Origin: an uncultured Gammaproteobacteria bacterium | GTDB lineage: Bacteria; Pseudomonadota; Gammaproteobacteria; DRLM01 | Direction: 5' to 3' | Assembly (NCBI GenBank): GCA_947259075.1 | Contig: CAMYKQ010000038.1 | Coordinates: 18,750 to 82,749 of the forward strand | Length of the DNA: 64,000 bases | Shown: positions 2,691-62,621 of the stretch, in pieces | Numbering within the stretch: the stretch's first letter is position 1 | Layout of the letters: every line of letters begins with the position of its first letter | Translations under genes and position numbers: made by a program | The notes under the pieces: generated by a model | Seen by the model: only the letters and a program-made list of their open reading frames with translations | What the model was told of the DNA's origin: nothing | Database searches by the model: none

Positions 2691-2712
2691 CGCATCTGCG
2701 GTGAGTGCTGGA

Positions 2713-8148: not shown

Positions 8149-8439
8149 GATCGGGTCTGTCTCCCTTAACTGAGCGGGTGGCTATTAGTGTTTTTTGCTT
8201 TGTGCCCGCTCAGTAACAACATTCTACTTTGGTATGCCTACTTTTGGATACTTTTATTATTCGTGCGCGCTGCGTAGTTTATCTCCACTTGGTTTGCAAG
8301 TTAGTTTTCAAACATCGCAAATTTCCGCTATCTATCCCGTGCGCGTCACCAGTGGCAGGGACAAGCTGCTGGTTTTGGCACAGGGATGTGTCTTTTGAGG
8401 TATTTCTTCAGGTCTTTGGTGTTTTAAGTATGTGGCGCG

Positions 8440-11064: not shown

Positions 11065-11372
11065 ATCCGTGCTGTGTGCTGTCGTTGCAACGGAGCGTCT
11101 CCGCCTGGGTTGTTTGCTGCACCTGTCTTTGGGTCTTGAACGGGCGTACCTTTTTAGCGGTCTGGCGAGGGAAAACTTAATCGCAATGCGCCGTATGCAC
11201 CGCGCTGGCCAGCTTAATTACCTACTTATTTGCTTGGTTTGCAGCGGGGCTGGAATTATGGCAAAAAGGCGGCACGCTTGCCCTTGGTCCGGGAGCTCAG
11301 GTTTGATGGCGCGGGGCCGATGTGTTCAGTGAACTTAGGCGGTGACGCGAGGATGGCTGGGAGGCGAAGGGC

Positions 11373-44602: not shown

Positions 44603-45612
44603 GCGTTCTCTCGCGCCGCGATATCGACGGCCAATTGCAAGGCCGCATCCAGGCTGCCGGACTCGGCGCCGCCCTTGCCCGCCAATTCCAGCGCGGTGCC
44701 GTGATCGACCGAGGTGCGGATGATGGGCAAGCCCAGGGTGATGTTCACCGCTTGGCCGAAGCCTTTGAACTTGAGCACCGGCAGGCCTTGATCGTGATAC
44801 ATCGCCAGCACCGCGTCGGCGGTATCGAGATGTTTGGGAATGAACAAGGTGTCGGCGGGCAGGGGGCCGATCAGGTCCATGCCCGCGCCGCGCAGCGCGT
44901 TGAGTACCGGCTCGACCACGTCGCGGTCTTCCGTGCCCAGATGGCCGCCTTCACCCGCGTGGGGATTGAGGCCGCACACCACGATGCGCGGCGCGGCGAT
45001 GCCGAAGCGCGCGCGCAGATCGTGATGCAGGATCCGTATCACCCCCGTGAGGTGCGGCGCGGTGATGGCGTCCGCCACGTCGCGCAGCGGCAAGTGGGTG
45101 GTGGCCAGCGCCACGCGCAGGCCTGCGGTGAGCAGCATCATCACCACTTGATCGCTTCGGGTGTGCTCGGCGAGAAATTCAGTGTGGCCGGAGAAGGCGA
45201 AGCCGGCGTCATTGATGACGCCTTTGTGCACCGGGCCGGTGACCAGGGCGGCGAAGTCACCCTGCACGCAGCCCTGGGTGGCCGCGCGCAGGGTGTCGAG
45301 CACGTAAGCGGCGTTGGCCGTATTGAGCTGGCCGGCTTGTACCGCGGCGCGCAAGGGCACGGGCAAGACCGTCAGCGTGCCGGCCGCTTGCGCGCGCGGC
45401 GGCTGTTCGGCATTGAATTCATTGAGCGCGAGGGGCAAGTCCAGTTGCGCCGCGCGTTGCGACAATAAAACCTGATCGGCGACCACCACCAGCTCGGCGG
45501 GATACGGGCGCTGCGCCAGCATCACGCAGAGGTCGGGGCCGATGCCGGCGGGCTCACCGGGGGTGATGGCGATGCGCGGCACGGCGGGCGGATAATTTCG
45601 GGGCTGAGTCAT
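44599..45612 (-). CDS. pdxA: 4-hydroxythreonine-4-phosphate dehydrogenase.
   Basis: [15 protein letters not shown]...GHTE...; its stop overlaps the rsmA start. Confidence 0.9.
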
Positions 45613-45693: not shown

Positions 45694-48600
45694 TTAATAG
45701 GTGCCTTGCAGGCGCAGGAACCAGCCGTGTACCGAGTAGTCGTTGTCGGAGAATTCACTGTCGGAGAAATCGGTGAAATTGTAGCCGCCGCCGACGCGCA
45801 CATGCTCCATGGCACGCCACATCACGTCGGCGGCCCAGCCTTGGCGCTGGTCGTCGGTCTCTTGCTGGCTTAACAGCCGGTATTCGGCGCCGAGGTCGAT
45901 GCGCGGGCGGATACGGTAATTGAGCCGGTTGATGGACAAGAAGGTAGTGGTGGCGATGCTGGGGCGGCCGCCCGCGCGTTCTTCTTTCATGCGCAACGCC
46001 AGTTTGTCCACCCATTCCAAGGCGGGCGTGAGCTCCAGCGACCATTCGATGGAGGCGATGTCGCGGCTGATGTTTTGCATATCGCCGGCGCCGAGACTGA
46101 GCGGGCGCTGATCGGCTTGGCGGGTGTAGCGCGCCAGGGCGTTGAAACGGTCGCTGGCCACGGGGCGGTAGGCTAGCCCTAAGCTGCTTTCTTCAAACTC
46201 CGCTTCCACGACATCGTTGTCGAGGTCGCGGCTGAGGCTGTAGCGGTATTTGCCCAGCAGGGTGTAATCGGGATCGAGCTTCAATTCCGCGCTATTGGTC
46301 GAGAGGAATTGCTCGCGTTCTTGTACCCCGCTTTCGCGGCGCAGTTCGTTGCGGGTGCTGGCGCTGAGTCCGCGCGGATGGCTGTAAGACAAGCCGGTGG
46401 CGATGGCGTAGCGGTCCGAGCCGCCGCTGGCGGCTTGGATCTTGCCCAGTTCCGCCGCCAGCAATAATTGCAGGCCGCGCCGCAGCCGCCATTTTTGTTC
46501 GGCGCCGATCAAGGAGACGTTGCGGTCGCCTTGGTCCGCTACTTCCCATTGGTATTCGGAATAGACCTTGCCGTCACGGCCCAGCGGTGATTGGGCGCCG
46601 ACGATGGTGGTATTGCGGCCGTTGTTTTGCATATCGCGGCTGAGGCGCTGGGTGAGGTAGAGGCGGTTGCCGTCGAGATTGAATTCCGCGCCCAATTCCG
46701 CGGCCTGCCCCAGGCTGCCGCTGATGCCTTTGGCCTTCAAGGTCAAGGCGGAGCTGAGGCTGTAATCAACGCCGATACCGGTTTGATCGTTGTCCGCGCC
46801 GCTGAGGGTGAATTGCTGCTCAATGGAGGCGGTGAGTTTTTCGGTGACGCGCAGACGCAGCTCGGCGGCCATCAGGCTGCTGTCATTGATGCCCGTGGCG
46901 GCGTTGCTGGTCTCTTTTTGCTGGTATTCCGCCGTGGCGCTCCAGCGTTCGGCGGCATGGCGCAGTTGCGCCGTCGTGGTACTGCTTTCGCTGTCACCGC
47001 TGGCGGACAGGATCTTTTCCTGATCTTGGCGCAGCAACACCTTGTCACGCTCGCTCACTTGCAGGCTCATGTTCAGTCCGCTTTTCTCCGACGAGATTTC
47101 ACTGCTATTGCCGTTGGAGATGAAGCCCGGCCCCAGGCGTTTCATGTAGGCGCCCATGCGATAGCGGTTGGCCTGGCCGAACCATTCGCCGATGTCCATT
47201 TCCGCGGCGAGTTTCCACGCTTGGCCGCTGCTGGTGTCGAGCGGCGTGGTTTCCTTGAAGCTGAGACCGCCGTCGTCACTGTAGAAGCTCTGGCCGTCGC
47301 TGCCTTCGCTCTGCGCCATTTCGGCGAGCAGGCGGGTGCCCTTGCCCAAGCGGATTTCGGTGTCGAGGCCTTGCAATTGATATTGTCCGGCGGCGCCTTC
47401 GTCTTGCACGTAGGTGCCGCCGATGGCGACGTGGTCGTTGAGCTGCTGGCGCACACGGCCGCCGCTGGCGCTCTTCTCGAAGAAGGCGGCTTCGGTTTCA
47501 TAGTCCACTTCGATGGAGACGGGATTGCCGCCCAGCAGCGCGCGATCGACGAGGCGGCTGTCGGCTTGGGTGCTGGCCAGCGGCCGGGTGAAGAGGATGC
47601 GGCCTTCGACGTAACGGATATTGTAATCGGTGTTTTGCTGCTGCGGCTGGCGTGAGAGCACCAGGCCGGTGTCTTTATCGCGCACCACCAACGTGACTTG
47701 TTCGCTGCCTTCGATGATGTCGCCGTGGCTCAAATAATAGAGTGAGCCGCCGGTGGCGCGCAGTTCGTCGCGCACGTGCATTTGCCGCACCGCCGCGCTG
47801 AATACCGCGACTTGGGTATCGGGGGCGCCGTATTGAGTGCGCGCCAGGCTTTGATAGGCGAGACGGCCGCCGAAGAGGGTGCGCTGATAGGTGGCGAGTT
47901 CGGTGTCGGTGAAATTCACCGGGTAGTTGCCGATCACCGCATGCAGTTCATCGCTGTCCACCGCGAGATAGAATTTGCCGCTGCTCTCGCTGTCGTAGAC
48001 CACGGTGCTGTCGTCGCCGTAGACCGGATAGAGTTTGTCGGGATCGATGTTGGTGAGCAGGCGGTCGTTCTCGGCGCGGTCGAGGTCTTTGAACATATCG
48101 CCCAGCTCGTTCGTGCCGCTGTCGAAGGCGGAGGTGACGAGGTATTTGCCCGCGATCACGCCTTTCAAGTAATAGGCAATGCGGCCCTCGCTGTAGAATT
48201 GCGAGGCGCCATCCATGCCCGCCCCCTGCACATAACCCTTGGCCTGCATCTGGCCGATCTTGCCGTCGGCGAAGGCGAGCAGGAAGAGTTTGGAATCGCG
48301 CACCTCGATATCGCGGCTGATGCGCCCGCTGTTGCCCGCCGGATCGCTCACGTTCACCTCGATGCTGCTGTGGCCCAGTGGCAGGGTCACGGTGGTGCTG
48401 AAGCGGCCGTCGTCTTGCAGCGCCACCTCTTTGGCGTTGACGCTAACCTTATTGCCCGGCTCGGTGGCGCCGCTCACCACCAGCACCGGCGAGGTGAGTG
48501 CCGCGTCCTTGGGCGGGAAGTTCACCGCGAGGCGCGGCACGGGTTGCACCAGCAGATACAGCGCGCCGTTTTCATCGCGTGCGCTCACCTTGACCTTCAA

Positions 48601-51600
48601 GTCCACCACGCGGGTGAAGTTGGCCTCGTTGCGCAGCAGCAGGGTGAAGAAGTTGACACCCTGTTTGAGTTTGATGTCGGCGGCGAAGCGGCCCGCGGCT
48701 TCGACGGGCAAGCGCCGGTCATCCAGCTGCACGATATTGCCCGGCTCGGTGCGCCCGTGCAGACGGAAGCCCATGACGATCTCTTCTGGCGCGGCGCGCG
48801 CCACGACATCGCGCGCGTCGGCGTAATAACCTTGTTCATCATCGCGCGCGCCGTAAGGCACGCGGACTTCACCGGCGGGCAGGTTTAAACTGGGCACGGC
48901 GATACGCGCCAGCGAGGACTTATCCTGCGCGCTGGTCAACTGAATATCGAACTCCGTGGCCGAGGCCGGCTCGATTTGGGTTTGGAAGACGCCGCCACCC
49001 TGCAATGGCAGTGTTTTACCGTTGATGACGGCGCCGGGTTCGGCGCGGTATTGATCGGTGACGCTGATGGTCTCGACCTTGCCCACCAGACCTTTGATCT
49101 CCACGCGGCGGTTCAGCTCGCGGCCCTCGGGCAGGCCGTTGCTCGCCATGGGCCGCCGCGAGCCGAAGCCGCGCACCACCAGCCGCTCACGCGGGATGTC
49201 TTCCTCTTCCATGAGATATCTCGCCGCCGCTTCGGCGCGTTCTTGCGAGAGGCGTAGATTGGCCTCATCGCTGCCGATGGAGTCGGTGTGGCCTTCGATC
49301 ACCACCTTCTCTTCCGGGAAGCGCAACAACAGCGCCGAGGATTCGCGCAGCGCCTGCCGCGCGGCGGGGCTGAGCTGGGACGAACCCAGTTCGAAGGCGC
49401 CGCCGGTGAGATTGACGGCGATGGCCGAGCTGCGATTGACGCCCACTAAACGCCGCGCGCTGCGCGCGACGCCGTCATCGGCGTAATCCAGCTCCAGTTG
49501 ATATTCGTAAATCTCGCCGCCTTCGAGCAAGTCGCCGTGATCGTCGCGCGCATCCCATTCGATGACGGGCGGCGGCGCGCCCTCGCCGCGCAGGGTGCGC
49601 ACGGTCTGGTGCGCGGCATTGTTCACGGTGAACAACCAGGCGTTCACCTTTGCTTTGCTATCGATGTTGACGCTGAGCCGCAGCGGTTGTTCGAGTTTGC
49701 CGCTGTTGATATTGATGAGATCATCCACGCTGGTGAGGCCGAGTTTGATGTCGCCGTTGGGCAGCGCCAGCGAATAACCGTTGACCAGCGCGGTGAGCAT
49801 TTCCACGCTGCCGAAGACGCTGGCGGGTTTTTCACCGAGTTCGGTTTGCGCGCGCAGGCCGTGGTTGGCGGCGCGGCCTATGATCTCGACCTCGTGCTGG
49901 TAAATCACGCCGAAATTGGCCTTGGCGAGCAGACCGGGCGTGATGTTCACCACGGTGATTTCCTCGGTCGTGACTTCGGCGCCGGCGTCCAGCGCCTGCA
50001 GATTTATTTTCAGCGCGCGCGGTCCCGGTTTGACCGCGGGGAAGTGGTAACGGCCGTGTTCATCGGTGAGGGCGTAGCTGCCGTTGTCCAGCACCACCAT
50101 GGCGCCGCTCACGCCTTTTTCGCCCTGGTCCTGTTTGCCGTTGCGGTTGGGGTCTTGGAAGACCTTGCCGATGATGGTGCCGAGATCGAAGACCGGATCG
50201 AGCGTCACGCTCACCCGGGCCTCGGCGTTATTGGAGATGTAGCAGACATCGCAGACGTCGAGGGCGTAAACGGTGTTGACGTATTCGCGCGGCGTGGCGC
50301 CCGCGCCGACGATCAATTGATAGCTGAGCGTGGTGTAGCCCTGTTCGCCGGGATCGGCGCTGCCATTGCCGTTGCTGTCCACCCGCGCGAGCAGGGTGCC
50401 GAGGCCGAAGATCAAGGGCCGGTGACCCGCCGGGTCGGGCGCCAGCGCGCCATTGAGGCGGGTGCTGCCGGGCACGTATTTGAAATTGGGCGGCAGGGCG
50501 TCATGCAGTTTGACTTGCAGCACGTCCTTGTCGGTGATGTTTTTGATGATGAGCGTATAGGTGACGACATCGCCGATCACCACCTCGTCTTTGTTGGCGA
50601 GCTTGGTGATGTCGAGCACGCGGCCTTGAGTGAAATACACCTTGGGCTGCGTGAGCAACACGATATTGTCGCTGATGTCGGTGGCGCGCAGGGTGGCGAC
50701 GCCGATGGTGTTGGAGCGGATCTGGGCGATGGCGCTGCCGTCGGCGCCGGTGGGCGCGCCGGCTTGGGTGATCGTATCCAAGGCGCCGCGATCGGAATCG
50801 AACACGACGGTTTTGCCCGGCACCCGCAAGCCGCTGGTGTCGATGAGGGTGGCGCTGAGCGTGCTGGCGGCGCTGCCGTCGGCGATGACGATGAGCGGTT
50901 GCGCGGTGACGATGGAGGCGAGCGGATCGACGCCGAACACGGTGCTGACGGCTAGGCCGTTGCCGTCGCCGGGATCGCCGTCGGCGTCACCCGCGCTCAC
51001 CGCTTGCGGCGCGGCGGGCGTGGCGCTGTCATCGACCGTGGCGCTGAAGACGCTGGCGCCGCTTACCAGCGGGGCGTTGGCGCTGAAACGCAATTGCAGA
51101 TTGCCGCTGGCGCTGAGTTTGGCGCCGAGTTTGACGCTCATGGTGGCGCCGCTGATGCTGGCGCAGTATTGGCCCGCGGCAGGCGCGGGGCACGCGGCCG
51201 CGAGCGCGCCGCCGTTGACGCTGAAGCCGGTGATGGCCAGCCCCATGAAGCCGGTGGGCGCGGTGACGCTGAGCAGATCGACGCCGCTGTCGCCGGGGTT
51301 GATGGCGGGCAGCACGTCGAAGGTAAAGGCGATGCCGGTGGCGCCCACCACCACGCTGGCCGGGGTGATTTCGCCCACGGCCGCGGTGACGGCATTGGCG
51401 TTGTCGTCGTTGTCGATGCTGTGCACGTGTTGCGCGATCGCGCCCAGGGTGGCGTTGAGCGGATTGCTGAGATTGACCACGACGGTCTCGTTGCTCTCCG
51501 TATCGGCGTCGTCGATGATCGCGAGGCTGATGTCCTTGCTGGTCTCGCCGGGATTGAAGATGAGCGTGCCGCTGGCGAGGGTGTAATCCACGCCGCCGCC

Positions 51601-54600
51601 GGTGGCGGTGCTGGCGGGATCGACGCCGTAATCCACGCTGACGGGCAGGCCGCTGGCGGCGGAGAGCGTGACGGTGATTAATGCGCTGGGGATATTCTCC
51701 AGCGCATTGCCGCCGGCGGCGGCGAAGGCGGCGCTGGGCGCGGCGTCGTTATCGTTGAGGGTGTAGCTGTGTTGCGGCGTCGCGCCGAGGATGGCGTTGA
51801 CGGGCGCGCTTAAATTGATGACCACGGTTTCGTCGCTTTCGTCCAAGGCGTCGTCGTTCACCGCGAGCGAGATGGCCTTGAGGGTGTCGCCGGGGTTGAA
51901 GGTGAGCGTGCCGCTGGCGAGGGTGTAATCGACGCCGCCGCCGCTGGCGGTGCCGGCGGCGTCGATGCTGTAATTGACGGTGATGATTTGGGTGCTGGCC
52001 GTGGAGAGCGTGACATTGACGCTGACCGGCGTGAAGGCTTCATCGCCGTTGGCGCTGGCGGCGGCGAAGTTGATTACCGCGGTGTCGTTGTCGCTTACGT
52101 TTACCGTGATGTTGGGAATGGCGAGGGCGTTGTAGTTCAAATCCGCGCTCGCGGCGCCGTGGGTGATGCTGGCACTGTGCGGGCCTTCGGCGATGGCATC
52201 GTCGATGGCGATGACGGTGACGGTCTGCGCGTTATTCCAATTGAGCGGAGTGAAGGTGAGCGCGACGGCCGTGCCCGCGCCGGCGCCCAAATCGGCTTGC
52301 GCGTCGGGGGTGACGGTAATGACGACGTTGGCGCCGGGCGCGGAGTCGAGCACCACGGTGTAGCTGTCGCCGGCGCCGCCCTCGCTGGCCGTGGTCGCGC
52401 CGCCGGACTCGTTAAACGTGACGCCGGGCAGATCGTTGTCGCTGATGGACACCACGATATTGGGAATGGCGAGGGCGTTGTAATTTAAATCCGCGCTCGC
52501 GGCGGCGTGGGTGATGACGGCGCCGTGCGGACCTTCGGCGCTGGCGTCGTCGACGGCGGTGACGGTGACGGTCTGCGCGTTGTTCCAATTGAGCGGGGTG
52601 AAGCTGAGCGCGACGGCCGTGCCCGCGCCCGCGCCTAAATCCACTTGCGCATCGGGGGTGACGGTGATGACGACGTTGGCGCTGGGCGCGGAGTTGAGCA
52701 CCACGGTGTAGCTGTCGCTGCCCGGGCCGGTTTCAGCGACGCTGGTGCCGCCGCCGGATTCGCTCAGGGTCACGCCGGGCGTGTCGTTGTCGGCGATGTT
52801 CACCGTGATAGTGGGGATGGCGAGGGCGTTGTAGTTCAAATCCGCGCTCGCGGCGCCGTGGGTGATGGTGGCGCTGTGCGGACCCTCGGCTATCGCGTCG
52901 TCCACCGCGGTGACGTTGACGGTCTGCGCGCTATTCCAGTTGAGCGGGGTGAAGCTGAGCACGACGGCCGTGCCCGCGCCCGCGCCCAAATCCACTTGCG
53001 CATCGGGGGTGACGCTGACGGTGACGTTGGCGCTGGGCGCGGTGTTGAGCACCACGGTGTAGCTGTCGCCGGCGCCGCCTTCGCTGGCCGTGGTGACGCC
53101 GCCGGATTCGTTGAGCGTCACGCCGGGCACGTCGTTGTCGCTGATGTTCACGAGCACATTGGCGATGACCAGGCCGTTGTACGCGGCATCGGCGCTGTTC
53201 GCGCTGTGGGTGATGCTGCTGTTGTGCGGGCCTTCGGCGCTGGCGTCATCCACCGCGGTGACGGTGACGCTCTGCGCAAGATTCCAGTTGAGCGGGGTGA
53301 AGCTGAGCACCACGGCCGTGCCCGCGCCGCCGCCTAAATCCACTTGCGCGTCGGGGGTGACCGTGAGGGTAACATTCGCCGCCGGTTGCGTGGCGAGCAC
53401 TAAGGTGTAGCTGTCGCTGCTCGGTCCGGTCTCGTTGACATTGGTGGCGCCGCCGGATTCGCTGATCGTCACCGCGGCCGCGTCGTTGTCGTTCACGGTG
53501 TAAACCTGTTGCGGGGTGGCGCCGAGGCTGGCGTTGCTGGGATTGGCAAGATCGATCATAACGGTTTCATTGCCTTCGGCGATGAGGTCATCGTTCACCG
53601 CGAGGCTGATGACTTTGCTGGTCTCGCCGGGGTTGAAGGTCAGCGTGCCGTTGGCGAGGGTGTAATCGATGCCGCCGCCGCTGGCGCTGCTGGCGCCGTT
53701 CACCGCGTAATCCACGGTGACGGTTTTACTCGAGGCGGCGGACAAGGCCACCGTGATGTTCACCGGCGTCACGGATTCCGCGCCGCTGGCCGCGGCGGCG
53801 GCGAAGCTCACGCTGGGCGCGGGGTCGTCGTCGGTGATGGTCGCGGTATGCACGGTCGTGCCGCCCGCGAAGGCATTGACGGGCGTGCCCATGGTCACAA
53901 CGACGGTTTCGCCGTCTTCGTCGAGCGCGTCGTTGACGACGGTCACGGTGATATCCGCGCTCAAACTGCCCGCGCTGATAATGAGAGGGCTGGCGGTGAT
54001 GGTGTAATCCGCCGGGTTGTTTGCCGTGCCGCCCAGGGTGAAGGGCAGGCTGACGTTCTGCGCCGAGACTTGTGACAGTTGCGCGGTGATGGTGAGCGTG
54101 CCCGCGTTTTCGGCGCCGCTTTGACTGGCGGCGGTGAAGCTGACTTGCGGCAAGACCGTCACGCCTTGCGTGTTGGCGTCCGCCGCGTCGCCATCGGCAT
54201 TGCCCGCGGTGGTGGCCTGCGCGGCGATAGAGCCGGTGCCGGTGTCGTCGACAGTGGACGTGAAGTTGCCGCTGCCGAGTGCGCCGGGCGCATCCGCGTT
54301 GAAGCTGATCTTGATGTTGGTGCCGGTTACGCTGACCTTGCTCCCCAAGCGGATGGTCATCACTTGTCCCGCGACGCCTGCGCAGTATTCACCCGCGGCG
54401 GGGGCGGGACAACTGCCCGACGCCGTTTGCGCGCCGCCGCCCAGCGATACGCCGGTGACGCTCAAACCGCCATAGCCCGCCGGGGCGGTGATGGCGATTT
54501 GATCGATGCCGGTGTTGCCGGGATTGATAGCGGGCAGTACATCGTAGGTGAAGTTGATGCCGCTGCTGGCGGCCGGTACCGCGGCGGGATCGATTTCAGC

Positions 54601-54780
54601 AACGACCGTGGTGACGGCGGCGTTTTCAGCGGTGACGCTGATTTGTCCCGAGGAGAGCAGGGTGACGCTGCCGCCACCGGGGTCGGTGGCTTCGTTAGTC
54701 GCGGTGCCCGCGCCATGGGCAAAGAGGGACCACAACAGCCCTGCTATGCACAAAAGGCCGGCGCGCATGCGTTGCGGCAT
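45694..54780 (-). CDS. Giant (~3030-3060 aa) secreted multidomain cell-envelope protein. Domain order: signal peptide, DUF11-like N-module, Calx-beta domains, 4 tandem 116-aa repeats, Big_1, DUF11, SdrD-B-like, internal OmpA-like peptidoglycan-binding domain, Ig-like domains, and a ~865-aa C-terminal beta-rich (barrel-like) domain.
   Basis: Probable start MPQRMRAGLLCIAGLLWSLFAHGA (signal peptide). Calx-beta motifs (VNDALDEDGETVVVTM, DDALDESDETVVINL). OmpA-like segment FPEEKVVIEGHTDSIGSDEANLRLSQERAEAAARYL...NRRVEI at about 49130-49430. Alternating-hydrophobic C-terminal 865 aa ending WFLRLQGTY. Confidence 0.8.
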   Translation of the reverse strand: MPQRMRAGLLCIAGLLWSLFAHGAGTATNEATDPGGGSVTLLSSGQISVTAENAAVTTVVAEIDPAAVPAASSGINFTYDVLPAINPGNTGIDQIAITAPAGYGGLSVTGVSLGGGAQTASGSCPAPAAGEYCAGVAGQVMTIRLGSKVSVTGTNIKISFNADAPGALGSGNFTSTVDDTGTGSIAAQATTAGNADGDAADANTQGVTVLPQVSFTAASQSGAENAGTLTITAQLSQVSAQNVSLPFTLGGTANNPADYTITASPLIISAGSLSADITVTVVNDALDEDGETVVVTMGTPVNAFAGGTTVHTATITDDDPAPSVSFAAAAASGAESVTPVNITVALSAASSKTVTVDYAVNGASSASGGGIDYTLANGTLTFNPGETSKVISLAVNDDLIAEGNETVMIDLANPSNASLGATPQQVYTVNDNDAAAVTISESGGATNVNETGPSSDSYTLVLATQPAANVTLTVTPDAQVDLGGGAGTAVVLSFTPLNWNLAQSVTVTAVDDASAEGPHNSSITHSANSADAAYNGLVIANVLVNISDNDVPGVTLNESGGVTTASEGGAGDSYTVVLNTAPSANVTVSVTPDAQVDLGAGAGTAVVLSFTPLNWNSAQTVNVTAVDDAIAEGPHSATITHGAASADLNYNALAIPTITVNIADNDTPGVTLSESGGGTSVAETGPGSDSYTVVLNSAPSANVVITVTPDAQVDLGAGAGTAVALSFTPLNWNNAQTVTVTAVDDASAEGPHGAVITHAAASADLNYNALAIPNIVVSISDNDLPGVTFNESGGATTASEGGAGDSYTVVLDSAPGANVVITVTPDAQADLGAGAGTAVALTFTPLNWNNAQTVTVIAIDDAIAEGPHSASITHGAASADLNYNALAIPNITVNVSDNDTAVINFAAASANGDEAFTPVSVNVTLSTASTQIITVNYSIDAAGTASGGGVDYTLASGTLTFNPGDTLKAISLAVNDDALDESDETVVINLSAPVNAILGATPQHSYTLNDNDAAPSAAFAAAGGNALENIPSALITVTLSAASGLPVSVDYGVDPASTATGGGVDYTLASGTLIFNPGETSKDISLAIIDDADTESNETVVVNLSNPLNATLGAIAQHVHSIDNDDNANAVTAAVGEITPASVVVGATGIAFTFDVLPAINPGDSGVDLLSVTAPTGFMGLAITGFSVNGGALAAACPAPAAGQYCASISGATMSVKLGAKLSASGNLQLRFSANAPLVSGASVFSATVDDSATPAAPQAVSAGDADGDPGDGNGLAVSTVFGVDPLASIVTAQPLIVIADGSAASTLSATLIDTSGLRVPGKTVVFDSDRGALDTITQAGAPTGADGSAIAQIRSNTIGVATLRATDISDNIVLLTQPKVYFTQGRVLDITKLANKDEVVIGDVVTYTLIIKNITDKDVLQVKLHDALPPNFKYVPGSTRLNGALAPDPAGHRPLIFGLGTLLARVDSNGNGSADPGEQGYTTLSYQLIVGAGATPREYVNTVYALDVCDVCYISNNAEARVSVTLDPVFDLGTIIGKVFQDPNRNGKQDQGEKGVSGAMVVLDNGSYALTDEHGRYHFPAVKPGPRALKINLQALDAGAEVTTEEITVVNITPGLLAKANFGVIYQHEVEIIGRAANHGLRAQTELGEKPASVFGSVEMLTALVNGYSLALPNGDIKLGLTSVDDLININSGKLEQPLRLSVNIDSKAKVNAWLFTVNNAAHQTVRTLRGEGAPPPVIEWDARDDHGDLLEGGEIYEYQLELDYADDGVARSARRLVGVNRSSAIAVNLTGGAFELGSSQLSPAARQALRESSALLLRFPEEKVVIEGHTDSIGSDEANLRLSQERAEAAARYLMEEEDIPRERLVVRGFGSRRPMASNGLPEGRELNRRVEIKGLVGKVETISVTDQYRAEPGAVINGKTLPLQGGGVFQTQIEPASATEFDIQLTSAQDKSSLARIAVPSLNLPAGEVRVPYGARDDEQGYYADARDVVARAAPEEIVMGFRLHGRTEPGNIVQLDDRRLPVEAAGRFAADIKLKQGVNFFTLLLRNEANFTRVVDLKVKVSARDENGALYLLVQPVPRLAVNFPPKDAALTSPVLVVSGATEPGNKVSVNAKEVALQDDGRFSTTVTLPLGHSSIEVNVSDPAGNSGRISRDIEVRDSKLFLLAFADGKIGQMQAKGYVQGAGMDGASQFYSEGRIAYYLKGVIAGKYLVTSAFDSGTNELGDMFKDLDRAENDRLLTNIDPDKLYPVYGDDSTVVYDSESSGKFYLAVDSDELHAVIGNYPVNFTDTELATYQRTLFGGRLAYQSLARTQYGAPDTQVAVFSAAVRQMHVRDELRATGGSLYYLSHGDIIEGSEQVTLVVRDKDTGLVLSRQPQQQNTDYNIRYVEGRILFTRPLASTQADSRLVDRALLGGNPVSIEVDYETEAAFFEKSASGGRVRQQLNDHVAIGGTYVQDEGAAGQYQLQGLDTEIRLGKGTRLLAEMAQSEGSDGQSFYSDDGGLSFKETTPLDTSSGQAWKLAAEMDIGEWFGQANRYRMGAYMKRLGPGFISNGNSSEISSEKSGLNMSLQVSERDKVLLRQDQEKILSASGDSESSTTTAQLRHAAERWSATAEYQQKETSNAATGINDSSLMAAELRLRVTEKLTASIEQQFTLSGADNDQTGIGVDYSLSSALTLKAKGISGSLGQAAELGAEFNLDGNRLYLTQRLSRDMQNNGRNTTIVGAQSPLGRDGKVYSEYQWEVADQGDRNVSLIGAEQKWRLRRGLQLLLAAELGKIQAASGGSDRYAIATGLSYSHPRGLSASTRNELRRESGVQEREQFLSTNSAELKLDPDYTLLGKYRYSLSRDLDNDVVEAEFEESSLGLAYRPVASDRFNALARYTRQADQRPLSLGAGDMQNISRDIASIEWSLELTPALEWVDKLALRMKEERAGGRPSIATTTFLSINRLNYRIRPRIDLGAEYRLLSQQETDDQRQGWAADVMWRAMEHVRVGGGYNFTDFSDSEFSDNDYSVHGWFLRLQGTY
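52074..53475 (-). repeat. Four near-identical in-frame tandem repeats (~348-351 bp, 116-117 aa each) inside the giant gene.
   Basis: Protein units VT(I/L/F)(S/N)ESGG...TVTPDAQVDLGAGAGTAV.LSFTPLNWN.AQTVTVTAVDDA.AEGPH...ITH.A.SAD.NYNALAIPNI.VNISDND. The periodicity is also visible in antisense ORFs at 52163, 52511, 52862 and 53213. Confidence 0.85.
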
Positions 54781-54959
54781 GCGTGGATCGCCCATGGCGT
54801 GACGACTTCGCACTATGTGCTCATCGACGTTGCTGACATCGGGAACTAAGACGAATTCACGCGGGCCTGCGTGCAAACGCGGACGCGCGCCGTGGCGCGC
54901 CGTGCCCTAGCGTGAAATCATCCGAGCCGTGCCGGCATGTAAGCCGGCAAGGCCCGGTC

Positions 54960-55571
54960 TTAGTTCTTGACCGCCTGGAACATCAGCGCGAAGGTCTTGT
55001 TGGCGCCCAAGCTGACGCTGCTGTTGGCCTGACCCGTTACCGCGCCCACCGTGATGGTGCCCGCCACATGGGAGGCGAAGTCATCCGGAGCGCCGAGGGC
55101 GTCGGTTTGCGCCGTGCCGCCGTTAGCCGCGGTATAGAGGTTGGCGATGGTGGCGTTGTCGGCTTGAGCCGAGTCGTATTTCAGCGAGGCCGCCGTGTAG
55201 GTAAAGCCGGTGCCGCTGGTATCCAAGACGTCTTGGAAGCGGACGTCGGTCAAGGCGATCGCCGTGGCGTTACGCACGAAGATCATGAACTTGAGCGGTG
55301 TGCCGACCGGGACGGTCACCGAGGTGGCGCCACCGTTACAGCCGGCATCCGTCGGACTGCTGGCCAAGCAATTGCCGCTGGCGTCGTAGACTTGTTTCAC
55401 CAGCGCGAGCTGCGTGGAATTGACGGTAACGTTGCCTGATCCCGTCAAGCTCACGCCGCCGCCGCCCGGGTCGGTGACCGCGTTGGTGGCCGCCTGCGCG
55501 CCGAGCGTGAACAGGCTGGACAGCAAAGACAGCCCTATGACTAGGGATAGGCGCTTGAATAAAAATTTCAT
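54960..55571 (-). CDS. Small secreted DUF11-domain protein.
   Basis: Signal peptide MKFLFKRLSLVIGLSLLSSLFTLGAQA. LALVKQV...KFMIFVRNATAIALTDVRFQDVLDTSGTGFTY fits the DUF11 pattern. The mature N-terminus ATNAVTDPGGGGVSL is shared with the giant protein (ATNEATDPGGGSVTL). Confidence 0.65.
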   Translation of the reverse strand: MKFLFKRLSLVIGLSLLSSLFTLGAQAATNAVTDPGGGGVSLTGSGNVTVNSTQLALVKQVYDASGNCLASSPTDAGCNGGATSVTVPVGTPLKFMIFVRNATAIALTDVRFQDVLDTSGTGFTYTAASLKYDSAQADNATIANLYTAANGGTAQTDALGAPDDFASHVAGTITVGAVTGQANSSVSLGANKTFALMFQAVKN

Positions 55572-56333: not shown

Positions 56334-57257
56334 TTATCGCGGCGCGAATGTTTCGTAACTGTGTTCGATGAGGGCGCCGCTGGTCGCGCCATGCTCGGGA
56401 AAGGTGGCAAACCCCGCGATGATGATGACATGCCCGGTGGCAAAGGTTTCCTGTCCCGGGAACGCGTGCTGGTTGATTCTTGCCGTCAATCTATCGAGAA
56501 GCGCCAGCGCGCCGTCGATATTGGTTTCAGGCAGCAACAAGGCGAATTCGTTGTCAGCGTAGCGCGTCAGCGTGTCGGAAGTGCGGATGAAATTGTGCAA
56601 GAACTTACCCAGCGAATAAAGTAATAAATCACTGGCTTTGCTGCCATGCTGGGCTTGATAAGCGCTGAAATCCATGATGCCAGTAATGACCACGGAAAAC
56701 TTGCGTTCATAGCGTTGTGAACGGGAGAGCTCCATGGCCAATATTTCGTGAAAATGTTTTTTGTTGTGCAGTCCGGTGAGTTCATCGATGGTGGCGAGCC
56801 GGTGCAGCTTGCGCGTGACGTTATTCAGCCCGTCGGCGTGTTGTTTTACTCGGTCCGATAATAAGCGATTATCGTGCATCAGCTGGTATTTTTCCGCGGC
56901 GCGTTCGATGACGGTGACGATGATGCCGCTTTCGTCGGTGGGCACGGTAACGCAATCATAGGCGCCCGCTTCCAAGGCATGTTTGGCGATATTCAGCTGT
57001 ACGCGGTGTACGACCGCCACGGTTTGGGTGTTCGTTGAGCGCAAACGGACGTCTTGGATCAGGCGCAGGCCGCCCGCGCTGTCGCGCGTGGTGTTGATCG
57101 CGATAACCGCGAACTGAGTTTTTCTCAACATGCTCAGGGCTTGGGCCGCGTCCGTGGCGCGCATCACGTTGTGTCCGCGCTGGGTGAGCGCCGTGGAGAT
57201 TGAGCTGGCGACGGTTTCTTCGTCGTCGACAATGAGGATGTGCGCTGGATTGGACAT
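56334..57257 (-). CDS. Degenerate REC-GGDEF protein: pseudo-receiver and catalytically inactive GGDEF with a retained I-site.
   Basis: Receiver-like N-terminus ILIVDDEE, but the phospho-acceptor position reads VIAIN (Asn, not Asp) and the conserved Thr and Lys are lost. GGDEF motif replaced by RYADNEF. RTSD I-site retained. Confidence 0.7.
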   Translation of the reverse strand: MSNPAHILIVDDEETVASSISTALTQRGHNVMRATDAAQALSMLRKTQFAVIAINTTRDSAGGLRLIQDVRLRSTNTQTVAVVHRVQLNIAKHALEAGAYDCVTVPTDESGIIVTVIERAAEKYQLMHDNRLLSDRVKQHADGLNNVTRKLHRLATIDELTGLHNKKHFHEILAMELSRSQRYERKFSVVITGIMDFSAYQAQHGSKASDLLLYSLGKFLHNFIRTSDTLTRYADNEFALLLPETNIDGALALLDRLTARINQHAFPGQETFATGHVIIIAGFATFPEHGATSGALIEHSYETFAPR

Positions 57258-57288
57258 TCAGTCGTTACATTTGTAAATATTGTTTGGG

Positions 57289-58281
57289 TTATAGGTCATG
57301 GCTGTAGCCGGTCACTTTGTTGCGTCCTGAGCGTTTGGCGCTATACAGGGCCTTGTCGGCCTTTTCGATAAGGATGCCGGGTTCGTTGCCGTCATCGGGG
57401 AAGTTGGCCAATCCGATGCTGACGGTGATCTTGCCGCCGGGTTGGCATTCTCCCCCGTAGAACGCATGTTCCGCGATATGCTGGCGAAGATTGTTGGCCA
57501 AGATTAAGGCGCCGTCCTTCGTGGTTTCAGGAAGAATCAATACGAACTCCTCCCCGCCGTAGCGGGCCACGGTGTCGGATTGGCGCAGGCGATGGCTGAA
57601 TATGTCGGCCAGATTTTTTAATAGCTCGTCACCTTGCGGATGACCGTGAGTGTCGTTGTAGTGCTTGAATTGATCGACATCGATGAAGAGCAAGGAATAT
57701 TGGCGCTTATGGCGCAAGGCGCGCGCGTGCTCGATGCCGATGGCTTCGAAAAAATAGCGGTGGTTGTAGAGGCCGGTCAGACCGTCCTTAACCGCCAGTT
57801 CTTGCAAGACGTGATTGACCTTTTCCAGTTCGACATTGTGTTTTTTCAGGCGGCTGACCAGCAGCTTGTTGTCATGAATAAGCCGGATTCGTTCCACGCT
57901 GCGATTAATGACATTGGTCACGATCTCGAATTGTTCGAAAGGTTTAATCAGATAATCAGTCGCGCCGGCGCGCAGGGCGCACACCGCCGAATGCAGGGAG
58001 GCGTAGCTGGTTATGATGATGACTTGGGTGTCGGGCTCGCTGGCCTTGATTTTCTCCAGCACCTCCAGTCCGCTGATATTGGGCAGGCGGATATCGACCA
58101 GCACCAGCGGGTGGCGCCCTTGTTCGAATAAGGCTAAAGCGTGTTCGCCGTCGGCGGCCGTGGTGACTTTGTGGCCTTCATCCGTCAAGAGTTCTTCGAG
58201 GACGTTGCGCAGGCTTTCTTCGTCATCGATCACTAAAATATCGATACCGGAACTCATGTCATTATGGCCGGCATTATTCAT
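57289..58281 (-). CDS. Response-regulator diguanylate cyclase (REC-GGDEF).
   Basis: LVLVDIRLP receiver Asp. RQSD I-site. RYGGEEFVLILPE. Confidence 0.85.
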   Translation of the reverse strand: MNNAGHNDMSSGIDILVIDDEESLRNVLEELLTDEGHKVTTAADGEHALALFEQGRHPLVLVDIRLPNISGLEVLEKIKASEPDTQVIIITSYASLHSAVCALRAGATDYLIKPFEQFEIVTNVINRSVERIRLIHDNKLLVSRLKKHNVELEKVNHVLQELAVKDGLTGLYNHRYFFEAIGIEHARALRHKRQYSLLFIDVDQFKHYNDTHGHPQGDELLKNLADIFSHRLRQSDTVARYGGEEFVLILPETTKDGALILANNLRQHIAEHAFYGGECQPGGKITVSIGLANFPDDGNEPGILIEKADKALYSAKRSGRNKVTGYSHDL

Positions 58282-59279
58282 TTTTTTGGCGAAGACAGGC
58301 CGGGGTTCGAAGTCTCGGCCTTGATGACTTGATTTCGCCCCGATTTTTTTGCCTTGTAAAGCGCTTGGTCGGCTTGGTGAAGTACGCTGGAAGCGTCGTC
58401 GCCGTCTTCCTTGAAGGTTGAGACGCCGATGCTGGCCGTGAGTTTGCCGCCAGGCTGAGTTTCTCTGCCCGCGAAGGGATGATTCTCAACTTCTTCTCTG
58501 ATGCTTTCCGCCAGGATGGTGGCGCCTTCCTTGCCGGTTTCCGGCAGTAAGAGCACGAATTCCTCGCCGCCATAGCGCGCGGCGATATCGGAGGTGCGCA
58601 AGCGCTCGCGCAGCAGCTCGCCGAGCTTATGCAGCAACTGATCGCCCAAGGGGTGTCCATGGGTATCGTTGTACTTTTTGAAATAATCCACGTCGATAAA
58701 GATGAGTGAGAAGGGACGCTGGTGGCGCCGCGCGCGGGCGACTTCCATGGTCAGGGTTTCTTGAAAATAACGGTGATTGTACAGTCCGGTGAGGCCGTCG
58801 CGGATGGCGAGCTCCCGCAATACTTGGTTGACGTTTTCGAGTTCATTGTTGTAACTCTTGAGTTTCTCCACCAGCTGCTTGTTTTCGATGACGAGACGGA
58901 TTTTCTCGGTGGCGCGATTGACCACCGCGGAGATCAGCTCCAAGTCTTCAAAGGGTTTTATTAAATAGTCATAAGCGCCGGCGCGCAGCGCGTTCAAAGC
59001 GGTGTCGAGCGAGGCGTGGCTGGTCATGATGACGACTTGGGTCTCCGGATTTATTTCTTTAATTTTATTCAGAAGATCGATGCCGCTCATGCCGGGCATG
59101 CGGATGTCGGTGATGACCAGGACATAGTGGGATTGCGTGAAAAAGGTCAGCGCCTCTTCCGCGCTGGCTGCCGTGGTAACCGGATAACCGTCGTCGGTCA
59201 GCACCTCATGCAGTACTTCGCGCAGGCTTTCTTCGTCGTCCACGACGAGGATGGGCAGTGAATTCTTTTCACTCATCAA
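58278..59279 (-). CDS. Response-regulator diguanylate cyclase (REC-GGDEF), paralog of the downstream gene.
   Basis: VLVITDIRMPGMSG. RTSD I-site. RYGGEEFVLLLPE. 4-bp overlap with the next gene. Confidence 0.85.
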   Translation of the reverse strand: MMSEKNSLPILVVDDEESLREVLHEVLTDDGYPVTTAASAEEALTFFTQSHYVLVITDIRMPGMSGIDLLNKIKEINPETQVVIMTSHASLDTALNALRAGAYDYLIKPFEDLELISAVVNRATEKIRLVIENKQLVEKLKSYNNELENVNQVLRELAIRDGLTGLYNHRYFQETLTMEVARARRHQRPFSLIFIDVDYFKKYNDTHGHPLGDQLLHKLGELLRERLRTSDIAARYGGEEFVLLLPETGKEGATILAESIREEVENHPFAGRETQPGGKLTASIGVSTFKEDGDDASSVLHQADQALYKAKKSGRNQVIKAETSNPGLSSPKK

Positions 59280-59454: not shown

Positions 59455-61314
59455 TCAGCCCGCGGCGGCGCGCGCGTCAACCTCCTTGGGCGAGACCGTG
59501 GCCGGCAGGGTGATGACGAAGCTGGCACCCTGTCCCGGCTCGCTTTCGATATGAATCTCGCCTTGGTGATCGCGGATGATGCCATAGCTCACCGATAGCC
59601 CCAGGCCGGTGCCTTTGCCGACCGCCTTGGTGGTGAAGAAGGGCTCGAAGATCTTGGCTTGAATTTCCTTGGGGATGCCGGGGCCGGTGTCGCTCACGCG
59701 CACCTCGAGCTTATCGCCGTCCAGCAAGCGCGTGCTCACGGTGACCGAACCGTTCTTGCCGTCCATGGCCTGTTGGGCGTTGATCATTAAATTCATCAGC
59801 ACTTGCTGCAGCTGATTGCCATTACCCATGAATTTGGGCAGGTCCGGCGTGAGCTCTTTGTTGAGCTTGACCTGGTTGATGGTGAGCTGGTGATCGACGA
59901 TGGCGCAGGCCTCGCTTACCACGTTATTGAGCTCGGTGATTTCCATCGCCACTTTTTCCTGACGGGCGAACCTCATGAGATTTTCGATGATCTCCTTGCA
60001 GCGTTTGGTCTCTTTTTCGATGAGACTCAAGTGCCGGTACACGGGGCTTTCCTTGTCGACCTTGCGCATCGACAGTTGCGCGTAGCCGAGGATGCCCGCC
60101 AGCGGGTTCTTCACCTCATGGGCGATACCGGCGCTGAGCTGGCCGAAGGCGGACATTTTTTCCGACTGCACCAGCGCGGCCTGCGCCTGTTTGAGTGCCT
60201 CCTCGCGGCTGTGCAGCTCGGTGGCCATGTGATTGAAGCTGTGGGCGAGCTCACCCATCTCGTCATTGCTGGTGATGTCGACGTGGATATCGAATTTACC
60301 CTGCCCGACCTCGCGGGCGGCGAGGGAGAGCTGTTCCACCGGCCGGGTGATTTGCCGCGACCAAAACAGGCTCATGAGCGCGGAGAGGACCAGCAGACCC
60401 AAGCTGACGCCGGTTAAGTTGTTGAGCAATTCGCGCGCGGTCAAATAGGCGGCGGATTTGGGTATCTGCGTGCCCAGCACCATTTTCGACACCTCGACGC
60501 GGGCGAAGGCGCCCACCATCTCGTTGCCGTTGGCGAGGTATTCCAATGAACTGGCCGCGGTTTGGCCTTTTATCAAAGGTTCCAGCGCGCGCAGGGTGTC
60601 CAAGGGCAGCCAGTCCAGCGGCGCGCGGGCGCTGACGTGTTGCGGCTCGCGGCTGACGAGAATGTTTCCGGCGTTGTCGACGATGAAGATCTCGAACACG
60701 CTGGTGCGGTCCGCCACCCGCAGCAAGGCGTCCATTTTAATGGTGGCGGCGGCGATGACGGGCGCTTCGGTGTCGGTCAAGGCCACCGGCGTGGCGAGGA
60801 CGAAGGCCGGGAGTTTATCGTTGAGGGTGGCATTGAACACGAAAGGCCGTTCCGTGGTGATTTTGTCGAAGGGCAGCGGGTTGGCGTCGCGAAAGGCTTG
60901 CAGGTCTTGTTTGGCGAGCCCCGCGCCCTGCAGGCCGCGGGCGTCGAACACCGTGGCTTGTTCAGTTTTGTTTTGATAGAGCGTGACGGCGATGAATTCC
61001 GGGAAGTCTTCGAACAGACCCTCCAGTAATTTGGCCTTTTCCTGTTGCGGCAGGAAGGGGTCGTACATCACGCGGCCGAAGACCTGTAAGCGCTCGTTAT
61101 ACCCTTGCACGATGGAGTTCACCTCTTCCGCGGCGTGCACCGCCACCAAGGAGGTCAAGTCACGAATATAGGTGCGCTTGTCGCTGTGAAACAGATTGGC
61201 CATGGTGAAGGTGATGACGCTCACCACGATGGTAATCACCACCAGCAAGGACAGCAGGATTTTGAAGCGCAGCGGAATGCGCAGGCCGCGGCGTGGCGTG
61301 GTAACGGCGCTCAT
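59455..61314 (-). CDS. Sensor histidine kinase with a periplasmic (Cache-like) domain, HAMP, HisKA and HATPase.
   Basis: TM1 ILLSLLVVITIVVSVITFTM. ~270-aa periplasmic region. TM2. HAMP. H-box SEKMSAFGQLSAGIAHEVKNPLAGI. G-boxes DTGPGI and GKGTGLGLSVS. Confidence 0.85.
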   Translation of the reverse strand: MSAVTTPRRGLRIPLRFKILLSLLVVITIVVSVITFTMANLFHSDKRTYIRDLTSLVAVHAAEEVNSIVQGYNERLQVFGRVMYDPFLPQQEKAKLLEGLFEDFPEFIAVTLYQNKTEQATVFDARGLQGAGLAKQDLQAFRDANPLPFDKITTERPFVFNATLNDKLPAFVLATPVALTDTEAPVIAAATIKMDALLRVADRTSVFEIFIVDNAGNILVSREPQHVSARAPLDWLPLDTLRALEPLIKGQTAASSLEYLANGNEMVGAFARVEVSKMVLGTQIPKSAAYLTARELLNNLTGVSLGLLVLSALMSLFWSRQITRPVEQLSLAAREVGQGKFDIHVDITSNDEMGELAHSFNHMATELHSREEALKQAQAALVQSEKMSAFGQLSAGIAHEVKNPLAGILGYAQLSMRKVDKESPVYRHLSLIEKETKRCKEIIENLMRFARQEKVAMEITELNNVVSEACAIVDHQLTINQVKLNKELTPDLPKFMGNGNQLQQVLMNLMINAQQAMDGKNGSVTVSTRLLDGDKLEVRVSDTGPGIPKEIQAKIFEPFFTTKAVGKGTGLGLSVSYGIIRDHQGEIHIESEPGQGASFVITLPATVSPKEVDARAAAG

Positions 61315-62621
61315 GGGAAGCGTCCTTGCACCAGTTGCGAGCGAAAGCTGACATTGCCGGCGGGGTCCAGGGCTTGCACCACCAGCACATTGCTGCCGCT
61401 CTCCAATTCGAGCTCATATTCGAAGTCGCCGTCGGCCCGCGGGGTGACCGGCTTGCCGGCGATCAGCAGCCGTGCGCCGGGCTCGGTGTGGCCGCGCACT
61501 CTTTGTTTGGACTCAGTGGTGATAGCCGGAGGAAATTCCACGCTCAGCAGCGGCGGGTCGGTGTCGCGCACTAATTCGAAGGCGCGCGCCGCGCTGGGCG
61601 GGCTTTCCGCCAAGGACGTCAGGCCGCTGACCCGCCAATAGTATTTCCCCGGCTTTAAATTGCCGTGAGTGTAGTGTTTCTCGGCGAGCGTGGTGGAGAT
61701 CACGATGTTGCCGAAGGCGGGATCGCGCGCCAGACTGAAATGAAAACGTTCCGTTTTTTCCTTCGTGTCCCAGCGGAATTGCACTTGCGGCGCTAGATCG
61801 CGGTAGTAATACACGCTGGCGTCGCCGGGTGCCGTGGGCAGCGGCGCCTTGGGCGGGGTGATGGCGCGGGTCGCCACGCCCGCGTCGCTGATGGTGGCGG
61901 CTTGATTGGCTTCGATGCGCAAGGCTTTGCCGCTGGCGGTGAGTAATTCCGCCATGCCGCTGAACACCGCGAGGGTGGATGTGTTATCGGGATTCACGGT
62001 GATCTTGAAGTCGGTCTCGCCCCGCGCCGCGGCGGTGGAGCTTAGCCGCGCCACGCCGTTGGGCGTGGCGACTTCCAAATGAATCGCGTCGCCGCTACTG
62101 GCCGTGAGTGTGCCGGACAGTTCGCCGTCCACCGCCATGGAGAAGGCGCGCCGGCCGCGCAATATAGGATCGCTTTCCATGCGGCGTATCACCACCAGCG
62201 AGTTCTCGCCCAGTTGCAGACGGTTATTTTCATCGAAGGCGATGACCGCCGTGGCGCCTTTCTGTGTTTGCACGGCGTCGCGATCGCGCAGCGCCATGCC
62301 GGCTTGGGCGTCGCGCCAGGCAATGGCGTCGGCCTGTTTGCTTTTCACCGTTTGCTGCGTGGTGCTGAGGGTGGCTACCACCGAGCTCGCATCGCCCAAA
62401 TGACCGTCCGCGCCGGGTCCCGACACCAATATATCCCGTCCGCCGGCGCCGCCGCGCGCCGCGCCCTTATCGCCGCGCATCAGGTCTTGGAAGCCGGTGC
62501 CGAGGGGAAAGAAGGTTTGCATCATGCCGAGGATGATGGCAAAGAAAACCAGCACCAAAACGATCGCGGCGACCGTTTCGGCGGATTTCGCCATAGCTGA
62601 CTTTAGCCGTCCAGGCACCAT
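61311..62621 (-). CDS. Membrane-anchored FecR-domain protein with a C-terminal Ig-like domain.
   Basis: N-terminal TM AAIVLVLVFFAIILGMM. FecR-like segment AVIAFDENNRLQLGENSLVVI. C-terminal beta-sandwich-like RVRGHTEPGARLLIAGKPV...ALDPAGNVSFRS. Its stop overlaps the HK start (ATGA). Confidence 0.7.
   Translation of the reverse strand: MVPGRLKSAMAKSAETVAAIVLVLVFFAIILGMMQTFFPLGTGFQDLMRGDKGAARGGAGGRDILVSGPGADGHLGDASSVVATLSTTQQTVKSKQADAIAWRDAQAGMALRDRDAVQTQKGATAVIAFDENNRLQLGENSLVVIRRMESDPILRGRRAFSMAVDGELSGTLTASSGDAIHLEVATPNGVARLSSTAAARGETDFKITVNPDNTSTLAVFSGMAELLTASGKALRIEANQAATISDAGVATRAITPPKAPLPTAPGDASVYYYRDLAPQVQFRWDTKEKTERFHFSLARDPAFGNIVISTTLAEKHYTHGNLKPGKYYWRVSGLTSLAESPPSAARAFELVRDTDPPLLSVEFPPAITTESKQRVRGHTEPGARLLIAGKPVTPRADGDFEYELELESGSNVLVVQALDPAGNVSFRSQLVQGRFP

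Follow-up and report, generated by a model that had tools for sequence, protein, structure and literature searches.

Which kind of domain is encoded by a short tandem array inside a giant gene, and does such an array still lengthen and shorten? We address this question for a stretch of 64,000 nucleotides from an uncultured Gammaproteobacteria bacterium (GenBank assembly GCA_947259075.1, contig CAMYKQ010000038.1, positions 18,750 to 82,749 of the forward strand), called the window below and numbered from its first base. The largest open reading frame (ORF) in the window (45694-54876, minus strand, 3060 codons from a TTG at 54876) contains four tandem units of about 350 bp. A sequence-only reading, made without database searches, had taken them for near-identical copies, for a recent amplification open to RecA-mediated expansion and contraction, and for a possible undescribed beta-sandwich module. 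We find that each unit is a divergent member of the Calx-beta superfamily of beta-sandwich domains, a fold that is already known, and that the number of units appears to have changed slowly. Together with neighbouring canonical Calx-beta domains, they probably form the stalk of a giant adhesin-like protein.

The array itself is clearly delimited. Tandem Repeats Finder reported a single array within the 3' third of the window (52084-53491, period 348, 4.0 copies, 82% matches, 2% indels, score 1697), and an independent seed-and-extend search found a 300-nucleotide core four times at spacings of 348, 351 and 348 nucleotides; a match of such size far exceeds chance expectation. Translation of the ORF agrees with both searches. 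The four units, of 348 or 351 bp, lie in frame at 52084-53481 on the minus strand. With residues of the giant protein counted from the TTG at 54876, unit 1 comprises residues 466-582 (117 residues, 53131-53481), unit 2 residues 583-698 (116 residues, 52783-53130), unit 3 residues 699-815 (117 residues, 52432-52782) and unit 4 residues 816-931 (116 residues, 52084-52431). The sequence-only reading had recognized the in-frame units of 116-117 residues every 348-351 bp, had placed them (at 52074-53475) within 10 nucleotides of the measured positions, and had given their consensus motif correctly.

In order to place the unit among known domains, we relied on structure prediction, profile-profile comparison and the register of functional residues. 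Unit 3 was modelled with AlphaFold2 on an 18-sequence alignment, which gave a sandwich of eight beta-strands with a predicted local distance difference test (pLDDT) of 94.3 and a predicted template modelling score (pTM) of 0.86. When this model was searched against the PDB with Foldseek, the best 12 matches were all Calx-beta domains of CALX and NCX1 (E 3.7e-5 to 3e-4, template modelling (TM) score 0.60-0.66). The top matches were CALX CBD1 (3e9t, E 3.7e-5, TM 0.65), NCX1 CBD1 (2dpk) and NCX1 CBD2 (2qvk), and the Calx-beta domain of integrin beta4 was found lower in the list. The unit model is thus a beta-sandwich that can be superposed on CBD1 and CBD2.

Profile-profile comparison also points to homology with bona fide Calx-beta domains. 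Using hhalign, we compared unit profiles built from 18 and from 89 sequences to the canonical Calx-beta domains of the same protein, and the resulting probabilities were 91% (E 9e-7, 83 columns), 89% and 93.4% (E 2.6e-7), the last two alignments being nearly full length. As negative controls, we compared the unit profile with Big_1, DUF11, SdrD_B, the Glucodextran_B-like domain and an N-terminal module of the same protein family, and all remained at or below 0.5%. The reference set was checked as well: a profile of the four canonical domains matches NCX1 CBD1/CBD2 in the PDB with E 4e-20. In the other direction, a hidden Markov model (HMM) of the unit scores canonical Calx-beta domains with up to 23 bits, exceeding 13 bits in 7 of 14 instances and mostly spanning most of the domain length. 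The sequence-only reading had been unable to assign the unit to Calx-beta by eye; by profile-profile means the assignment can be made.

The third line of evidence is the position of Ca2+ ligands. In two hhalign alignments, Asp78-Asp79 and Glu83 of the unit face the (N/D)-D pair and the Glu of the flanking domains, and His86 faces their second Glu. In the two runs that reach the domain end (89% and 93.4%), the terminal Asp-Asn-Asp of the unit faces the terminal DDD of the flanking domains. Comparison of the Calx-beta profile with the PDB aligns the same flanking-domain residues to the NCX1 'DDDIFEEDE' loop. The NCX1 CBD1 ligands matched in this way are presumably D446, D447, E451 and E454, from a fuller set that we take to be E385, D446, D447, E451, E454 and D498-D500. 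Among 89 diverse members of the family Asp79 never varies, and conservation reaches at least 90% at Glu17, Asp115 and Asp117. Judged by these alignments, Glu17, Asp78/Asp79, Glu83 and the C-terminal Asp-Asn-Asp would correspond to the Ca2+ ligands of the Na/Ca-exchanger CBD1, with most of the site kept. In that domain the ligands gather at one end of the sandwich, beside the exit of the chain to the next domain. All four units have two histidines, His86 and His92, in the motif EGPHxxxITH; the nearest subfamily retains both, but they are not conserved throughout the wider family.

Because these three independent lines (fold search, profile-profile comparison and ligand register) agree, we place the unit in the Calx-beta superfamily, whose members NCX1/CALX CBD1/CBD2 and integrin beta4 (PF03160) it resembles also in its length of about 115 residues. 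Moreover, the units directly adjoin canonical Calx-beta domains in one stalk. The differences from canonical Calx-beta are considerable. The unit fails the Pfam HMM, it has a core of the form LTFTxxNWxxxQTVTV in place of the Calx-beta signature (DY...G.L.F.PGE..K.I), and the subfamily of the array carries an extra DLGAGAGTAV loop in addition to the invariant EGPHxxxITH.

These differences could be taken to mean that the unit has no relation to Calx-beta and represents a genuinely new beta-sandwich fold or family, and conventional sequence searches do favour such a view. Libraries scanned were Pfam-A (2025 copy) and NCBIfam r20. Against Pfam-A, a single unit had no Calx-beta match even at E<=1, whereas PF03160 has a gathering score of 27 bits, and the four Calx-beta stretches that Pfam gives for the full-length protein are domains on either side of the array (53482-54153, residues 242-351 and 353-465, N-terminal of it; 51403-52083, residues 932-1044 and 1046-1158, C-terminal of it; all on the minus strand) and not the units. 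The only Pfam match of a single unit was TOBE at 16.9 bits, under the cut-off of 22.3, which we treated as chance or composition. Neither Pfam nor NCBIfam gave a consistent assignment for three giant proteins of the family and 89 isolated domain instances; the weak Pfam matches seen most often among the 89 were to LapA (18), fn3_6 (17) and Calx-beta (14, the best at 9e-5). Searches of PDB sequences with three unit profiles gave chance-level matches only (E >=0.037), so that the family has no PDB chain detectable by sequence, and a Spirochaetota member with 18 copies is named 'hypothetical protein' at NCBI. Unrelatedness to Calx-beta nevertheless appears extremely improbable: the top Foldseek matches are uniformly Calx-beta, the hhalign probabilities stand beside clean negative controls, 14 of the 89 members do match Calx-beta weakly in Pfam, and the Ca2+-ligand positions are conserved in register. 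The unit belongs to a known superfamily, as a branch that has not been curated, and its fold is not new. Of the suggestion of an undescribed beta-sandwich module, the sandwich and the lack of recognition by Pfam-A and NCBIfam hold, and the novelty of the fold does not.

A relation to another stalk domain was also considered. CLIPPER (DUF11) is an isopeptide-bonded beta-sandwich domain in the stalks of Gram-negative fibrillar adhesins that also have an OmpA-like anchor, and it is defined by an intramolecular Lys-Asn isopeptide bond, a catalytic Asp and a CnaA-like fold (bioRxiv 10.1101/2025.04.25.650565). The giant protein does contain one DUF11 repeat elsewhere (residues 1425-1476, minus strand, NCBIfam), and the CLIPPER structure 9ifr was found at rank 13 of the Foldseek list for the unit 3 model, with 12% identity. 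For the units themselves this identity was ruled out. They have no lysine, which makes a Lys-Asn isopeptide bond impossible, and hhalign against the DUF11 region gave 0.2%; the match to 9ifr is a generic sandwich resemblance only.

Having identified the domain, we turn to the age of the array. The units are not near-identical, as the sequence-only reading had assumed. Pairwise nucleotide identity is 74-87%, hence for no pair under 70%, and amino-acid identity is 66-83%, with 0.21-0.65 synonymous substitutions per synonymous site (dS) and a ratio of nonsynonymous to synonymous rates (dN/dS) of 0.30-0.66. Unit 1 is the most diverged copy (74-77% nucleotide identity and dS 0.42-0.65 to the rest), while unit 2 is 86-87% identical to units 3 and 4 in nucleotide sequence, and dS among units 2-4 is 0.21-0.34. 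The longest perfect run between any two units is a block of 51 nucleotides shared by unit 2 (52817-52867, minus strand) and unit 4 (52118-52168, minus strand), and all other perfect runs are of at most 33 nucleotides. A crossover at the 51-nucleotide block would remove or add exactly two units, in frame, and among the possible substrates for homologous recombination within the array this block would be the longest. The GC content at third codon positions on the coding strand is 0.86-0.91 over the array, and ORFs of the plus strand that overlap it are taken as by-products of the GC-rich sequence, because the minus strand carries the homologues and dN/dS is below 1.

Identity along the units is mosaic. 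Over the first 90 nucleotides, units 2 and 4 are 86-93% identical versus 67-75% for units 3 and 4. A clean duplication of two units (699 bp) was considered as an explanation and was only partly borne out, as the alternation of units 1 and 3 versus 2 and 4 is limited to the first 60 nucleotides or so. Over whole units, similarity at a shift of one unit equals that at a shift of two (about 0.82-0.83). We therefore describe the pattern as mosaic conversion.

Dating of these events requires a relative, and close relatives were not readily found. Exact look-ups of the giant protein (with two candidate starts) and of PdxA returned no record, a scan of GTDB genomes with the single protein detected no relative, and a metagenome scan yielded one weak locus only, at 38% identity. 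The best match in protein databases to the C-terminal 660 residues was 52% identical. A profile-seeded scan of the GTDB genomes, using a trimmed alignment, then detected 39 loci. The closest (L002) belongs to a groundwater Gammaproteobacteria metagenome-assembled genome (MAG), nzgw582, and is 80% identical over the C-terminal 660 residues. In this genome pdxA and ksgA follow the giant gene as they do in the window, and the upstream genes differ.

The orthologue in L002 measures 2692 residues from stop to stop. Writing C for a canonical Calx-beta domain and U for a unit of the array, its domain order is C-U-U-C-C, compared with C-C-U-U-U-U-C-C in the window, that is, two units versus four. Length variation in general, as proposed by the sequence-only reading, is thus borne out between these two genomes. 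Among the flanking Calx-beta domains the pairing is one-to-one: of the two on the N-terminal side in the window, the first is 78% identical to its counterpart and the second is found in the window only, and the two on the C-terminal side are 67% and 65% identical to theirs. The units do not pair in this way. They are 66-83% identical within the window and 72% within L002, but 59-66% between the genomes.

For orthologous parts of the two genomes dS is 0.42-0.82, and between the two units of L002 it is 0.89. Since dS among units 2-4 is lower than that of the orthologous parts, these units are younger than the split of the two lineages. On the simplest reading, the ancestral array would have had about two units, and the lineage of the window would have gained two copies of a template resembling unit 2 after the split, with patchy conversion since. 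The comparison shows that the array grew through duplication of units, together with unequal crossing-over and gene conversion in patches. Copy number does change over evolutionary time, and the last events are old, roughly at a third to half of the species-level divergence; set against the distance to the nearest relative, inter-unit dS does not bear out the recent amplification proposed earlier.

The best protein-database matches to the unit itself (P0001 and P0005, 65% and 48% identity) come from a further locus, L041 (ENA ERZ25039600 contig_56879, 1-12868), where they correspond to short ORFs within a series of short gene calls. This series looks like a frameshift-fragmented giant repeat gene and adjoins genes for ATP-sulfurylase, a sulfotransferase and TauE. 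Owing to the fragmentation and the unrelated context, the locus was excluded from copy counting.

The protein that carries the array has the features of an exported envelope protein. An ATG at 54768 opens a stretch resembling a signal peptide, MRAGLLCIAGLLWSLFAHG/AG, and conservation with L002 starts only there (MRAGLL onward). This ATG is probably the true start, in which case the protein would have 3024 residues and a Sec-type signal peptide. Pfam detects in the whole protein four Calx-beta domains (PF03160, E 2e-51), Big_1, SdrD_B, OmpA and Glucodextran_B, and NCBIfam detects the DUF11 repeat. From the N-terminus, the signal-like sequence is followed by a module of 130 residues, the block C-C-U-U-U-U-C-C, a second module of 130 residues, Big_1, DUF11/CLIPPER and SdrD_B. 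The C-terminal part consists of an OmpA-like peptidoglycan-binding domain (49108-49395, minus strand, residues 1828-1923, PF00691, E 8e-23), a Glucodextran_B-like Ig domain and a region of about 590 residues (45697-47463, minus strand, residues ~2472-3060) without Pfam match, a predicted beta-barrel and putative outer-membrane anchor. The AlphaFold2 model of this region shows about 30 consecutive long strands, and its Foldseek neighbours are MtrB, LptD, TonB-dependent receptors, ushers and SlpA, with TM-scores of only 0.2-0.35. The barrel family is present in 39 GTDB genomes, from Gammaproteobacteria, Nitrospirota, Desulfobacterota and Acidobacteriota MAGs. The order of passenger, OmpA domain and large barrel is unlike that of classical or inverse autotransporters.

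Taking this architecture together with the identity of the domain, we consider it likely that the N-terminal stalk of a giant, adhesin-like protein exported by Sec is built from the units and the four canonical Calx-beta domains, and that in this stalk the units would act as Ca2+-stiffened extenders and the array would change slowly rather than being hypervariable. The protein would be anchored by the OmpA-like domain, through peptidoglycan binding, and by the large C-terminal barrel. Each unit would be an independently folding module of about 12 kDa, whose conserved acidic residues would bind Ca2+ and stiffen the chain. As a result of this stiffening, how far the distal modules reach would be determined by the number of units. 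We infer Ca2+ binding, rigidity, surface exposure and an adhesive function of the stalk largely by analogy with better known proteins.

The closest analogy is with the extenders of giant adhesins (MpIBP region II, MhLap, AhLap, SiiE, LapA), which are likewise tandem beta-sandwich modules of 10-15 kDa in the stalk of an envelope protein. In those adhesins the rod is stiffened by Ca2+ bound at the junctions between domains (PMC7493085), and the acidic residues of the units would likewise lie at such junctions. For RTX adhesins, structures and simulations show that Ca2+ in the inter-domain linkers stiffens beta-sandwich extenders that are unrelated in sequence (PMC7493085). The likeness to RTX and LapA adhesins does not extend further. 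By Pfam, the giant protein has neither RTX nonapeptide repeats (no HemolysinCabind match) nor a type I secretion C-terminus. Instead, its signal peptide is of the Sec type, and it combines an OmpA-like domain with a predicted C-terminal barrel. Weak LapA matches occur among other family members, as noted above, but the array units match no Pfam LapA or Big model.

Several observations weigh against the reading of the units as Calx-beta extenders in an exposed stalk. The TM-scores to Calx-beta are moderate and go with a root-mean-square deviation of >4 A, and the unit matches no Pfam or NCBIfam model, PF03160 included. At the ligand position E454 of NCX1, a Glu, all four units have His86, a difference that bears on metal identity and stoichiometry. 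The barrel model is of moderate confidence (pLDDT 70.8, TM <=0.35), and the OmpA-like domain lies between the stalk and the barrel, which complicates the topology of a stalk that is putatively exposed. The role of the units as stalk or spacer is likewise derived from analogy.

The main competing explanation concerns the dynamics of the array rather than its fold. The array could be a hypervariable tract of the 'periscope' type, recently amplified, in which RecA-mediated unequal recombination within populations tunes the length of a surface protein. The resemblance to such proteins is real, in that the units follow one another head to tail in a single frame, several identical blocks of 20-33 nucleotides occur besides the one of 51 that joins units 2 and 4, copy number differs between the window and its nearest relative, and both the greater likeness of units within than between genomes and the mosaic identity indicate past recombination or conversion. 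However, homologous recombination drops steeply at a divergence of 10% or more, and because the present identity of the units is 74-87%, the array is probably now a weak RecA substrate and not a periscope tract. The values of dS between units are also a sizeable fraction of those between the lineages, and no close relatives were found in the collections searched. The variation is seen between species-level lineages only. Periscope proteins (SasG, Rib, Aap) share with the giant protein a stalk of tandem, independently folding domains in an envelope-anchored protein, and length-variable repeat proteins occur in Gram-negative bacteria too, but their definition demands highly identical repeat coding sequences (PMC9704523), which the array does not have. 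We therefore regard a hypervariable tract as unlikely.

The remaining alternatives concern the role of the unit. The copies could be modules binding a carbohydrate, protein or mineral ligand, with their number raising avidity, instead of passive spacers. Across the 89 family members, conservation is at least 90% for Tyr101 and for the Trp in the FTxxNW motif, the two histidines are retained as described, dN/dS is below 1, and the unit is so widespread in giant proteins that roles other than spacing are conceivable. Yet the conserved hydrophobic and aromatic residues can be explained equally well as the core of the sandwich, the matched stretches in related proteins number up to 68, as is typical for extender arrays, and no ligand-binding family was matched, all of which makes this role very unlikely. 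Somewhat different is the proposal that the unit represents a distinct and very large family of the Calx-beta clan, whose histidine-bearing site binds another metal or senses pH, so that the environment tunes stiffness or length of the stalk while the array is still changing its copy number (2 to 4). Its hallmarks would be the FTxxNW...QTVTV core and the invariant EGPHxxxITH of the subfamily, which puts one His at a Ca2+-ligand position; we consider this proposal distinctly unlikely.

Overall, the observation behind the sequence-only reading is real, its description is partly confirmed, and its interpretation is partly supported.

Two further features of the giant protein deserve mention. The module of about 130 residues occurs before the Calx-beta block (copy 1, ~54262-54651, residues ~75-205) and again after it (copy 2, ~50977-51384, residues ~1165-1300), in both cases on the minus strand and without Pfam match. 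The copies are 50% identical (E 4e-35) and share the motif ...FTYDVLPAINPGNTGID...CPAPAAGEYC.... Directly upstream of the giant gene, an ORF of 203 residues (54960-55571, minus strand) has a weak, sub-threshold match to DUF11/CLIPPER (E 0.015); it may encode a small envelope protein related to the DUF11 repeat of the giant protein.

In Gammaproteobacteria surA, pdxA and ksgA are usually directly adjacent. In the window, about 17 kb separate surA (62808-63989) from pdxA/ksgA (43805-45612). Besides the giant gene and two small ORFs, the interval contains, upstream of the giant gene, three response-regulator-GGDEF genes (56334-59279) and the genes of a HAMP histidine kinase (59455-61314) and of a FecR-like/Ig protein (61311-62621). 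The GGDEF and kinase genes suggest, by analogy with other biofilm adhesins, that the giant gene could be under cyclic di-GMP (c-di-GMP) control.

How common is the unit beyond this protein? An exhaustive profile search over 1.84 billion cluster representatives identified 31,127 proteins at E<=1e-3; with the threshold tightened to E<=1e-10 there are 22,557, and 9,324 reach E<=1e-30. The first count is probably inflated by some canonical Calx-beta proteins with many domains, because the unit HMM gives each such domain up to 23 bits, and the figure for E<=1e-30 is safer to use. The top matches are giant proteins of 1,700-7,900 residues with 13-68 matched stretches each.

For the locus itself, the result mostly clarifies: the array is best regarded as an ordinary series of stalk domains in a giant envelope protein, with a known fold and without recent hypervariable amplification. 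The comparison of two units with four provides a dated example of stalk growth. The practical value lies in the recognition of an abundant domain without a curated model in the tested libraries, and a dedicated model within the Calx-beta clan would annotate much so far unannotated sequence in giant bacterial surface proteins.

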